Origin: Candidatus Thorarchaeota archaeon
GTDB lineage: Archaea > Asgardarchaeota > Thorarchaeia > Thorarchaeales > Thorarchaeaceae
Assembly: GCA_016839445.1 (NCBI GenBank)
Contig: JAEOUG010000175.1
Span: forward strand, 1 to 21,007
Reading direction: 5' to 3'
Length of the DNA stretch: 21,007 nt
Shown here: piece by piece, positions 18,331-20,352 of the stretch
Position numbering within the stretch: position 1 is the first letter of the stretch
Layout of the letters: each line of letters begins with the position of its first letter
Translations under genes and position numbers: made by a program
The notes under the pieces: generated by a model
Told to the model about the DNA's origin: nothing
Databases searched by the model: none
Seen by the model: only the letters and a program-made list of their open reading frames with translations

Positions 18331-18389
18331 GGCCCGCGATTGAGAGTCTGGCCTGTGGAATGCAGGCCAGTCGTGCTTTATTCACTAAT

Positions 18390-18620
18390 CTACTCTGCGA
18401 CCTCACTCAGGGAAGCGTTCCAGATAGTGCTACCATCAGTGATACCAGATGCCCTCATCCTTTTCCCAAGGCACCTCTCGAACTCGTCGGTGCCGTAGTC
18501 CGCGGAGACTGCGGCCCAAGGAAGAATGGCAGACAGTCTGTACTCACGGCCATCATCTGTGACGATAGCGTAGTTCCCTCCAGGCTTGGTCACCAGGCCC
18601 ACTACCTCAATGTCCTCCAC
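18390..18620 (-). CDS. Small beta-rich hypothetical protein (possible OB fold), 76 aa
   Basis: GTG start after GGAAGGTGG. Pattern EVVGLV...YAIVTDDGREYRL...GKRMRASG. Confidence 0.7.
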   Translation of the reverse strand: MEDIEVVGLVTKPGGNYAIVTDDGREYRLSAILPWAAVSADYGTDEFERCLGKRMRASGITDGSTIWNASLSEVAE

Positions 18621-18635
18621 AAGGCCACCTTCCGG

Positions 18636-18666
18636 GTAGTCACATGATGTGACTACTTGATGTGAC
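18636..18666. promoter_or_regulatory. Perfect palindrome plus extra half-site, probable operator
   Basis: GTAGTCACAT-G-ATGTGACTAC (18636-18656), with TGATGTGAC repeated at 18658-18666, in a divergent intergenic region. Confidence 0.6.
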
Positions 18667-18684
18667 CCTAAGTTGTGGCTCCGC

Positions 18685-18692
18685 TATATATA
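18685..18692 (+). promoter_or_regulatory. TATA box
   Basis: TATATATA ending 33 nt before ATG 18725. Confidence 0.55.
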
Positions 18693-18724
18693 CTGATTCT
18701 GAGTGGTGTATGTTGTGAACTATA

Positions 18725-18829
18725 ATGGCTCTAACAACTAACAACCCCTACACATCTGTGCTGAAGAACAAGACCGGCAAGACTCAGTCAACTGATGCTC
18801 TCGCCTACGCCTACCAGTATCGGAGGTAG
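18725..18829 (+). CDS. Micro-ORF A, 34 aa MALTTNNPYTSVLKNKTGKTQSTDALAYAYQYRR
   Basis: Downstream of a TATA box. Paralogous to ORF B. Confidence 0.65.
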   Translation: MALTTNNPYTSVLKNKTGKTQSTDALAYAYQYRR

Positions 18830-18835
18830 AAGATC

Positions 18836-18919
18836 ATGGCTCTAGCAAAGACAGAGAAGACAGCCCCAAGGAAGAGAATAACGACTGACGCAGTCACCTA
18901 CGCGTACTTCAGAAGGTGA
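18836..18919 (+). CDS. Micro-ORF B, 27 aa MALAKTEKTAPRKRITTDAVTYAYFRR
   Basis: SD GGAGGT at 18822-18827. Shares MAL and TDAxxYAY with ORF A, with synonymous codon differences. Confidence 0.65.
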   Translation: MALAKTEKTAPRKRITTDAVTYAYFRR

Positions 18920-18925
18920 TTCGTA

Positions 18926-19036
18926 GTGACCGGCAAGACTCACTCTCATTCGCGGACTGCCCCTAGCTCATCTGATGACGTGGCAAAACGTCGTCGCATA
19001 ACCAATGAAGAAGTGCTCATGCTTGAGGCAACCTGA
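18926..19036 (+). CDS. Micro-ORF C, 36 aa MTGKTHSHSRTAPSSSDDVAKRRRITNEEVLMLEAT
   Basis: GTG 6 nt after AGGTGA. Shares TGKT with A and TAP...R.RIT with B. Confidence 0.5.
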   Translation: MTGKTHSHSRTAPSSSDDVAKRRRITNEEVLMLEAT

Positions 19037-19040
19037 GCAC

Positions 19041-19055
19041 TTCTACTTCTTTTCT
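19041..19055 (+). terminator. Pyrimidine/T-rich archaeal-type terminator
   Basis: TTCTACTTCTTTTCT immediately after micro-ORF C. Confidence 0.45.
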
Positions 19056-19082
19056 GCTGTAGATCGACAATCCACGCAAGGA

Positions 19083-19682
19083 TCAATCATTCTTGATGAT
19101 CCAGCTAATCAGACCCGCTGTCATAGCGTTCTCTCTTACGAACTCATCCCGGTACCAGTCGTTCTCGAAGAGGAACAGGACATTCTGTATCCCTGCGTCA
19201 AATCCCACTAGACGCACTGCTCGCTCCAAGGCATTTGGCCTGAATGCGAAGTAGCTGGCAATCATGCAGGCTGCGAAGAAGATAGTGAACCCAATCGGGA
19301 TGAATCCAATTGGCTTTCCTCGCCATAGAGCATCGCCCACGAAAATCAGAGCAAAGAACATGAAGGCCATAGCGAAGCCATCAATCACGATACAGAATGT
19401 GCGGTACCGCTCGTGGCCGGCATCTAGGAACTGATGGTCGTCGCATACGTAGATGGGCAGTATCTTCGCGGGGGCTGAAGTTGACTGCATGCTCCTTCTG
19501 GCATACCTGCTGTAGTACGGGTCCCACGATCGGACAAGATACTCCTTTCGTCCAGAAACAACCTGTATCTTTGCCGTGTGAGATGCAGTCTTTCCGCAGA
19601 CCGGACAGACCCTAGGGAACCTGATCCGGGCAGTCTCTACCCGAACCACAGGTTTGCGGAAGTACTCTTTCTTCTGGCCCAT
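19083..19682 (-). CDS. Hypothetical membrane protein with a Zn-binding motif (CPVC...CDDH) and two TM helices, 199 aa
   Basis: ATG 19682 follows GGAGGT (track start 19784 would overlap the GNAT start). FPRVCPVCG, YVCDDH, two hydrophobic segments. Confidence 0.8.
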   Translation of the reverse strand: MGQKKEYFRKPVVRVETARIRFPRVCPVCGKTASHTAKIQVVSGRKEYLVRSWDPYYSRYARRSMQSTSAPAKILPIYVCDDHQFLDAGHERYRTFCIVIDGFAMAFMFFALIFVGDALWRGKPIGFIPIGFTIFFAACMIASYFAFRPNALERAVRLVGFDAGIQNVLFLFENDWYRDEFVRENAMTAGLISWIIKND

Positions 19683-19782
19683 TGATACCTCCCTGCAAGT
19701 CAAGCTCAGTCCGTGAAGTAAAATGTCTATCGAAGTAAGCCATGGGCCAGCTTTATGTGAACGCCCGGCTGTTTCTGCATCC

Positions 19783-20352
19783 ATGTACTACGGGGAGAAG
19801 GTGCACCTCCGGGCGCTGGAGATGGAGGATCTTGATACCGTTCTGTCCGGATGGAACAACCTAGATCTCAGGCGTCATCTAGTGACACCACTACCAGTTT
19901 CCAGACCGGCCGAACGACAGTGGCTCGAACGGGCGACAATGATGCATCCATTCAGAGATGGAGGAATCGTTCTGGCCATTGAGGACAAGGACTCCTCGGA
20001 GTTCCTAGGTACGACAAGCCTGATGGGCATCGCCAAGCAGCACTCTAGAGCAGAGTTCGGGATTGCCATACACAGGGAGTCCGACAGAGAGAGGGGGTAT
20101 GGTACCGACGCAACAAGGGTAATGCTCTGGGTTGCATTCAACATTCTTGGCCTCAACTCAGTGCACCTAAGGACCTTGGCCAGAAATGAGAGAGCTCAGA
20201 GAGCATATGAGAAGGCCGGATTCCGTTTCGTCGGGAGATACAGAGATGCTGCCTTTGTGATGGGAGAATTCCAAGATGTCGTCACCATGGATTGTCTCAA
20301 GAGAGATTTCTTCGAAACCCTTCCTCCCGGAAAACCAGTCGGAACAACATAG
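19783..20352 (+). CDS. GNAT N-acetyltransferase, RimJ/RimL/SpeG-like
   Basis: GEKVHLRALE, AEFGIAI, RGYGT, N.RA.RAYEKAGF. Start assigned to ATG 19783. Confidence 0.9.
   Translation: MYYGEKVHLRALEMEDLDTVLSGWNNLDLRRHLVTPLPVSRPAERQWLERATMMHPFRDGGIVLAIEDKDSSEFLGTTSLMGIAKQHSRAEFGIAIHRESDRERGYGTDATRVMLWVAFNILGLNSVHLRTLARNERAQRAYEKAGFRFVGRYRDAAFVMGEFQDVVTMDCLKRDFFETLPPGKPVGTT

Follow-up and report, generated by a model that had tools for sequence, protein, structure and literature searches.

A Predicted Operon of Three Paralogous Microproteins Behind a Conserved Promoter in the Thorarchaeaceae

Introduction

The 21,007-nucleotide stretch of DNA analyzed here (the window), which comes from a Candidatus Thorarchaeota archaeon of the family Thorarchaeaceae (GenBank assembly GCA_016839445.1, contig JAEOUG010000175.1), carries three short open reading frames (ORFs), A, B, and C, which appear from their sequences to form a self-contained, translationally coupled operon of three paralogous microproteins. 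That this operon is translated is highly probable. The three ORFs represent three types (types 1, 2, and 3) of a microprotein family that has not been described before. A sequence-only reading of the window, made by a model without database searches, had drawn attention to these ORFs, and their positions and translations agree with the ORF list and the raw sequence. It had also proposed that the peptides form an undescribed family built around a short linear motif and have an operon of their own, a proposal that held up against Pfam, NCBIfam, the PDB, and the literature.

Proteins of about 30 residues are largely missed by gene callers, and almost nothing is known of them in the Asgard archaea, organisms that are otherwise difficult to study and that inform thinking on how eukaryotic cell organization arose. 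The family presented here is a well-supported case. Its three paralogous types occur in hundreds of copies within a single archaeal family and are under purifying selection, and their promoter is conserved even more strongly than the genes. An operator in this promoter ties the peptides to a bactofilin-domain gene and, in some loci, to a transporter of the major facilitator superfamily (MFS), and the sequence profile of the family lets annotators label intergenic gaps that look "empty."

Coding Evidence

By the pattern of their variation among relatives, A, B, and C are real protein-coding genes. No internal stop occurs among the matches listed (150 per search) in three profile searches, and indels come in multiples of three. 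In a codon analysis of 56 members from 30 loci, invariant residues are written with a range of synonymous codons, as seen for Ser (TCA 15, TCG 14, TCC 13, TCT 8), Thr (ACT 22, ACC 21, ACA 13), and Ala (GCT 26, GCA 16, GCC 9, GCG 5). In pairwise comparisons of the same members, the closest pairs have a dN/dS of 0.10 and all others one of 0.29-0.40, and differences at third codon positions are about twice as frequent as at positions 1 and 2. The N-terminal M-A-L is also conserved, and codons 2 and 3 are unusually uniform (GCT in 38 of 55, CTA in 34 of 55), which points to an extra constraint at the nucleotide level around the start.

The motif T-D-A-[LV]-x-Y-A-Y that the sequence-only reading had seen in both A and B, with synonymous differences between the two, is present as described. 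The same reading had named frameshifts or stops in related genomes, with conservation at the nucleotide level only, as the outcome that would speak against a peptide family, and what the relatives have instead is intact frames and conservation at the level of amino acids. It had further cautioned that the terminal Arg-Arg might simply reflect the overlapping Shine-Dalgarno sequence. The codons of the conserved Arg vary (AGG 29, CGG 17, AGA 5, CGT 1), and members that stand last in their operon end in Arg-Arg as well (AGA CGC, on contig C7), so that this caveat falls.

Family Size and Distribution

The own assembly of the archaeon comprises 2.9 Mb in 190 contigs and is 89.8% complete. When positions 18650-19080 were compared with it by BLAST, the promoter and ORF A were found at three further places with 85-92% identity. 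The motif search that the sequence-only reading had recommended, carried out with the expression [ST]?DA..YAY on the six-frame translation of the genome, gave 6 matches, all within the resulting four family loci, and reading these loci revealed looser paralogues beyond the matches of the expression. A hidden Markov model (HMM) built from nine members recovered all nine (E 2e-19 to 8e-12) and added a tenth (E 0.0017), after which the next match came at E 2.8. The ten members are distributed as A and B in the window (contig C157), four on C43, two on C97, and two on C7, and the four loci are flanked by unrelated housekeeping genes (topoisomerase VI, SMC, aIF5B, NDK, and others).

The profile of these ten peptides matched all 24 genomes of the same genus, with 3-13 matches each, and 78 of the 85 other genomes of the same GTDB family, Thorarchaeaceae, in 16 of 16 genera, with the frames intact. 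A deeper profile of 55 sequences matched 52 of 59 genomes of the family and none of 191 genomes from 27 other families of the phylum, with the limit that some of the genomes searched are incomplete and that misses there do not prove absence. The type 1/2 family is restricted to one archaeal family and is present in several dispersed copies per genome.

A profile search of a library of 1.84 billion representative proteins gave 66 matches at E ≤0.001, mostly of 29-46 aa, and some gene callers therefore do predict such ORFs. The members themselves have 27-40 residues. The sole name that any source gives for the library matches is "hypothetical protein." Nine of the 22 library matches that were fetched, 137-341 aa long, consist of a constant unit of about 11 residues (ISTHALT... 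type) with variable stretches, and these were taken as probable translated repeat arrays and set aside as false positives. One further library protein (P0024, 229 aa, profile E 5e-6) contains six tandem repeats of about 19 aa, each with [ST]-T-D-A-L-F, and is probably an unrelated repeat protein.

Curated resources gave no assignment. For the ten members, Pfam returned DUF5371 at E about 0.07-0.09 in three (13.5 bits against a cut-off of 25) and Herpes_TK_C at E 0.12 in one, none of them above cut-off, and NCBIfam returned no match for any of the ten. ORF C likewise matched no curated family, a sequence search of the PDB with the profiles gave no match at E up to 10, and the ESM Atlas gave no usable match. 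Full-text literature searches found no description of the peptide family. The partial texts of two works, one on archaeal ribosomally synthesized and post-translationally modified peptides (RiPPs; PMC12144867) and a preprint on deep-sea small proteins (10.64898/2025.12.15.694180), do not mention Thorarchaeota, and the supplements of both could list such peptides. These searches leave the family undescribed, without a curated family, a solved structure, or a paper.

A Third Type and the 3′ Hairpin

ORF C is not detected by the HMM of types 1 and 2. At the syntenic loci of three other species, an ORF occupies the position of C, with a variable N-terminal half (including a 3-nt indel) and a conserved C-terminal half, for which the type 3 consensus is ...AK-R-R-C-[LIM]-T-x-E-E-V-L-[LM]-L-E-A-T. 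Among the 85 other genomes of the family, 25, belonging to 4 of 16 genera, matched a type 3 profile. Every one of the 20 fetched loci has type 2 immediately before type 3, and 19 of them have type 1 in front; type 1 followed by type 2 is also a recurrent pair at the loci of relatives. The idea that C is a degenerate copy is ruled out, as it is a separate and conserved third type. The 15 identical nucleotides of A (18772-18786) and C (18928-18942) that the sequence-only reading had noticed were found again, and the C orthologues of other species lack this stretch and start with ATG, the window's C starting with GTG. This suggests that a small local conversion from A replaced the 5′ end, and with it the N-terminus, of C.

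The type 3 gene ends in codons that also make up the 5′ arm of a hairpin. The codons in the stem are nearly fixed (GAA in 19 of 20 loci, GTG in 16, CTC in 17), and those in the loop vary synonymously (Glu GAA 16/GAG 4; Ala GCA 8/GCC 6/GCG 3/GCT 1; Thr ACA 9/ACC 6/ACG 3/ACT 2); therefore, the stretch is both coding and structured. The hairpin forms in most of the 20 loci, with folding energies from -16.7 to -38.5 kcal/mol, and RNAalifold gave eight consensus pairs, two of them with compensatory double changes.

Types 2 and 3 usually share one frame and are parted by a single TAG and two codons (18917-18925 in the window, where the stop is TGA), the shared frame being a consequence of the fixed spacing from the stop and Shine-Dalgarno sequence to the next start. 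In the window, A, B, and C all lie in one frame (start offsets 111 and 90 nt). Six library proteins of 69-84 aa with Gln at the junction had at first been read as natural type 2-type 3 fusions and as Rosetta-stone evidence, and they were rejected as evidence of physical coupling. When one of them was searched against the genomes, 46 of 50 matches spanned all 70 residues with exactly one in-frame TAG at the junction, and the apparent fusions therefore most probably result from gene calling under a code in which TAG stands for Gln. Pyrrolysyl-tRNA synthetase (PylS) gave no match above cut-off in this genome. Low-level read-through of the single in-frame stop may nevertheless carry translation from type 2 into type 3 and yield a fused two-helix protein. 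The AlphaFold2 (AF2) model of one 70-aa read-through form has two helices joined by a low-confidence linker (predicted TM-score 0.30) and is uninformative on their packing.

Operon Layout and Control Region

The features of the operon are collected in Table 1. The gaps from A to B and from B to C measure 6 nt each, and each is preceded by a Shine-Dalgarno sequence embedded in the end of the preceding ORF. This arrangement, like the TATA box and the T-rich, terminator-like run, here found to follow a hairpin, is as the sequence-only reading had it. The assignment of the GTGGCTCCGC box and TATATATA as B recognition element and TATA box is putative and rests on their position, 32 nt before the ATG, and the TATA spacing would place the transcription start about 10 nt upstream of the ATG. 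The next gene past the operon (19083-19784) lies on the opposite strand and converges on it. In the whole window there is no Rfam match at gathering score and no tRNA match.

Table 1. Predicted features of the microprotein operon, in window coordinates.
Feature	Position	Strand	Basis
Palindromic operator GTAGTCACAT-G-ATGTGACTAC, perfect palindrome	18636-18656	+	sequence; same element in 35/41 distinct upstream regions
Third half-site GATGTGACCC	18659-18668	+	kept as CTGTGACCC in promoter alignment
GTGGCTCCGC box, then putative TATA box TATATATA (TATA at 18685-18692)	18675-18692	+	nearly invariant in 35/41 upstream regions
Short 5′ leader from TATA box to start codon, ending TTGTGAACTATA	18693-18724	+	conserved across loci
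ORF A, type 1 microprotein, 34 aa, ATG start	18725-18829	+	ORF list and raw sequence; family HMM
GGAGGT, predicted Shine-Dalgarno for B, within final codons of A	18822-18827	+	sequence read
ORF B, type 2 microprotein, 27 aa, ATG start	18836-18919	+	ORF list and raw sequence; family HMM
AGGTGAT, predicted Shine-Dalgarno for C, includes TGA stop of B	18914-18920	+	sequence read
ORF C, type 3 microprotein, 36 aa, GTG start, C-terminus EEVLMLEAT	18926-19036	+	ORF list; syntenic conservation
3′ hairpin, 10 bp, arms 19010-19019 and 19034-19043, overlaps last codons and stop of C	19010-19043	+	folding; covariation
T-rich run after hairpin, terminator-like	19044-19055	+	sequence; T-runs after hairpin in most of 20 loci

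The promoter is conserved to an unusual degree, 35 of 41 distinct upstream regions matching almost base for base over about 100 bp, in the order palindrome, third half-site, GTGGCTyCGC, TATATATAC, conserved spacer, and TTGTGAAaTATcATGGCTCTA. In five of the other six, type 2 had been taken as the first gene, so that the region holds the end of an unrecognized type 1 ORF, and one upstream region (L019) is truly different. The promoter pattern had no match in viral contigs. Metagenome contigs of three DNA runs break or switch sequence at this repeated promoter (18660-18716), and one loose contig end runs from there into the sequence of the C7 paralogue; the repeat therefore fragments assemblies.

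The operator core, AGTCACA-N3-TGTGACT with at most one mismatch, occurs at four sites in the genome, against about 0.5 expected. Three of these are peptide loci, the fourth peptide locus (C97) having an operator with two mismatches, and the remaining site (C98:1592) lies 90 nt before a gene for a 413-aa bactofilin-domain protein. This gene is single-copy in 78 of the 85 other genomes of the family, and in 25 of the 30 loci examined the operator lies no more than 200 nt from the approximate start of the gene. A gene of the winged-helix family HTH_45 stands directly upstream of the bactofilin-domain gene in 28 of 29 relatives, with 72-94% identity, and C98:1170-2920 in this genome contains the HTH_45 gene (C98:1170-1541), the same palindromic operator, and the bactofilin-domain gene. 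The HTH_45 protein is our candidate for the regulator that would bind the palindrome.

At some loci, type 1 is separated from the following peptide gene by a conserved non-coding element (about 110 nt, stops in all frames) in which three direct repeats of GGTCAC are accompanied by an inverted GTGACC, CAGCATATC, and a weak TATA. It is found on C43 (L005, 2559-2705) and C97 (L033) of this genome and at L018, L023, L026, and L035-L037, and could act as an internal promoter or operator or as an RNA hairpin.

Protein Features

In the AF2 model of A (55-row alignment), residues 23-32 form a helix with pLDDT (predicted local distance difference test) of about 82, against a mean of 67, and the rest is disordered, including the N-terminal part rich in Lys, Thr, and Asn; the short C-terminal helix is amphipathic. 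The motif on which this helix is built reads S-T-x-A-[ILV]-x-x-A-Y-x-[YF]-R-R. S22, T23, A25, A29, Y30, and R33 of A are nearly invariant, and conservation at the C-terminus reaches 91% for Tyr and 93% for Arg. By geometry, the invariant residues would share one face of the helix with positions 26 (hydrophobic) and 32 (aromatic), the two Ala being spaced i/i+4. Type 3 retains the helix start [ILM]-T-x-E, followed by an acidic-hydrophobic tail, EEVL[ML]LEAT.

All three types are hydrophilic, with a mean grand average of hydropathy (GRAVY) of -0.56 for type 1, -0.58 for type 2, and -0.82 for type 3, and net charges of +3 to +7, +4 to +7, and -4 to +5, respectively. Types 1 and 2 have no Cys (27 and 25 sequences), and type 3 has 1.2 Cys per peptide. 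The highest 15-residue Kyte-Doolittle window is 0.97, and since none reaches 1.0, the peptides have no membrane segment and no signal peptide. A predicted complex of A, B, and C scored 0.07 against a mark of 0.32, B with its 27 residues lying below the calibrated range of the tool.

Proposed Function and Rival Explanations

The common promoter, together with the operator that also precedes the bactofilin-domain gene, leads us to read the peptides as co-switched cytoplasmic binding modules. The three microproteins would be made together in fixed proportion and would act as short-linear-motif-type modules, the helix face of conserved Ala, aromatic, and Arg residues serving as a docking surface and the basic tail as an accessory contact. 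The dispersed operon copies would all be driven by the near-invariant promoter of about 100 bp with its palindromic operator, through which one DNA-binding regulator, possibly the HTH_45 protein encoded beside the bactofilin-domain gene, would switch on the peptides together with the bactofilin-like gene; in some loci, the same regulator would also control an MFS transporter. The cytoplasmic location, the binding of a partner, the identity of the regulator, and the link to bactofilin function are all presumed, and we give this mechanism as a whole a little less than an even chance. A more specific form of it, in which the microproteins would be dedicated partners of the Asgard bactofilin-type cytoskeletal protein and might act on its filaments, for example by capping, bundling, or tethering them, through the Ala/Tyr/Arg face of the helix, type 3 being an acidic counter-piece, seems to us rather unlikely.

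Several observations weigh against this mechanism. A shared operator means co-regulation at most and not physical interaction. The operator was not seen before the bactofilin-domain gene in 5 of the 30 loci, with the start of this gene called crudely throughout. The HTH_45 candidate is far more widespread than the peptides, being present in 55 of 59 genomes of the family and in 47 of 191 outside it, so that, should it prove to be the regulator, the regulon would predate the peptides, which then joined it. A single RNA-library contig (from one metatranscriptome run) fits the 1.1-kb stretch; it corresponds to 18353-18595, i.e., to a 76-aa ORF upstream, and misses the operon. At four loci of relatives (L013, L018, L023, and L026), the type 2 gene ends 9 nt before an MFS gene, an arrangement that would suit export, or control of the transporter, no less well than a link to the cytoskeleton.

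The last point leads to an explanation in which the products would be exported cationic peptides without a signal peptide, with the MFS transporter as their exporter. In its layout, the operon resembles leaderless multi-peptide bacteriocin operons and the staphylococcal psm-alpha operon of phenol-soluble modulins, in which paralogous ORFs of about 20-45 codons likewise stand in tandem behind one promoter under a dedicated regulator, every ORF having a ribosome-binding site of its own and coding for a cationic product without a signal peptide, and an MFS gene also lies nearby at L035-L037 and at the C43 locus of this genome. However, those peptides are hydrophobic or amphipathic throughout, act on membranes, and have exporter or immunity genes at their one locus, whereas the present ones are hydrophilic and mostly disordered, with only about 10 residues predicted to be helical and no hydrophobic or long amphipathic stretch, and are encoded at no fewer than four dispersed loci per genome, most of which, like that of the window, lack genes for transport, immunity, or processing; export is accordingly unlikely in our view. 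The place of type 2 immediately upstream of the MFS gene in four loci also recalls transporter-modulating small proteins such as AcrZ, SgrT, and MgtS, many of which are embedded in the membrane, but the lack of a hydrophobic segment and the absence of a transporter from most loci set the present peptides apart from these, and the toxins of type I toxin-antitoxin systems, too, need a hydrophobic, membrane-spanning peptide, along with an antisense RNA. It could also be argued that the short ORFs are cis-acting leader peptides (upstream ORFs), whose conserved last dozen residues, running up to a conserved stop, would stall the ribosome and so control downstream genes such as the MFS transporter before which type 2 directly stands in the four loci, and the conserved non-coding element that precedes the second unit would suit such a role. 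Yet in the window, as in most other operons, a hairpin and T-run close the unit and no same-strand gene follows, the neighboring gene being convergent; there are three coupled ORFs rather than one; and conservation reaches the N-terminal M-A-L, all of which makes attenuation of this kind quite improbable.

RiPP precursors modified in trans had been among the suggestions of the sequence-only reading. The peptides would then be precursors of RiPPs or of cofactors, with a conserved C-terminal Tyr/Arg motif cross-linked by an enzyme encoded elsewhere. Such a role would accord with the C-terminal position of the conserved residues, with the multi-copy precursors known from some RiPP classes, and with the one radical SAM/SPASM enzyme of the genome, which lies away from the peptide loci (C188:58747); precursors with Tyr cross-links, made by P450 enzymes (cittilins, biarylitides) or by radical SAM enzymes (triceptides), are similarly short and carry an aromatic-x-aromatic or aromatic-x-basic motif near the C-terminus. 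In P450-dependent RiPPs, the P450 is normally encoded beside the precursor, and the gene clusters of radical SAM RiPPs (triceptides, sactipeptides, ranthipeptides) contain a maturase of the radical SAM/SPASM type, usually accompanied by a RiPP recognition element (RRE). Against this background, no radical SAM, P450, YcaO, or lanthipeptide-type enzyme is encoded among 122 ORFs of at least 100 aa beside 43 loci of relatives, nor is there a RiPP-type modifying enzyme or RRE beside the four loci of this genome (47 loci in all), and PF00067, the P450 family, gave no match in this genome (89.8% complete) although it did so in control genomes. The absence of an adjacent modifying enzyme and of a P450 leaves the RiPP suggestion without support; types 1 and 2 are in addition free of Cys, which Cys-dependent radical SAM or lanthipeptide RiPPs require in the core peptide, and the most invariant positions are a Thr and the two Ala within the predicted helix, which fit a helix-packing face better than a modification site, and we judge a RiPP role improbable. 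That the stretch might be a non-coding RNA or a decayed repeat, open by chance, could draw on the promoter and first codons (ATG GCT CTA) being more conserved in nucleotides than the rest and on the real RNA hairpin that overlaps the end of C, but it is scarcely credible given the synonymous variation at invariant residues, the dN/dS of 0.10-0.40, the indels in threes, the frames free of stops among the matches listed, and the want of an Rfam match in the window. Precursors of pyrroloquinoline quinone and mycofactocin, PCNA- or Cdc48-binding motifs, and WH2 motifs were considered and dropped on the spacing of the conserved residues. As a dispersed, lineage-restricted multigene family of tiny hydrophilic proteins in mono- or bicistronic units under one promoter type, the microproteins are reminiscent of the minor small acid-soluble spore proteins of Bacillus, from which they differ in having no sequence similarity (Pfam and NCBIfam gave nothing) and an archaeal palindromic operator in place of a sigma-factor promoter.

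Genomic Neighborhoods and Minor Observations

The loci of relatives fall into several classes by their neighbors. In the class of the window, which recurs in several genera, desulfoferrodoxin, the operon, a protein of about 200 aa without a known family, and a GNAT acetyltransferase follow one another. A second class has PolX; a third has the MFS_1/MFS_3 transporter on the same strand behind type 2, as described above; and others have eEF1A/aIF5B, a UbiE-type methyltransferase with TrmB, or an amino-acid kinase with an IclR-type helix-turn-helix (HTH) protein. These recurring contexts indicate that the loci are old paralogues at stable chromosomal places and not a mobile cassette.

The operon of the window is flanked by genes for an energy-coupling factor (ECF) riboflavin S component, desulfoferrodoxin, the 76-aa ORF on the reverse strand, a convergent 233-aa protein without a Pfam match, a GNAT protein (Acetyltransf_3), and transketolase. 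Across several genera, the protein of 200-233 aa (19083-19784, minus strand in the window) and the RimJ/RimL-type GNAT gene (19723-20352, plus strand) adjoin the three-gene operon, and a search for related loci with the 233-aa neighbor as query gave no match. All family members begin with Met-Ala, and a link by N-terminal acetylation between the GNAT enzyme and these peptides is conceivable.

The 76-aa ORF upstream of the operon (18390-18620, minus strand) has a weak match to DUF5818 (E 0.0012, below cut-off). About 150 nt downstream of the peptide pair on C7 (L007), a stretch on the opposite strand resembles, by eye, the 3′ half of a tRNA with a possible intron.

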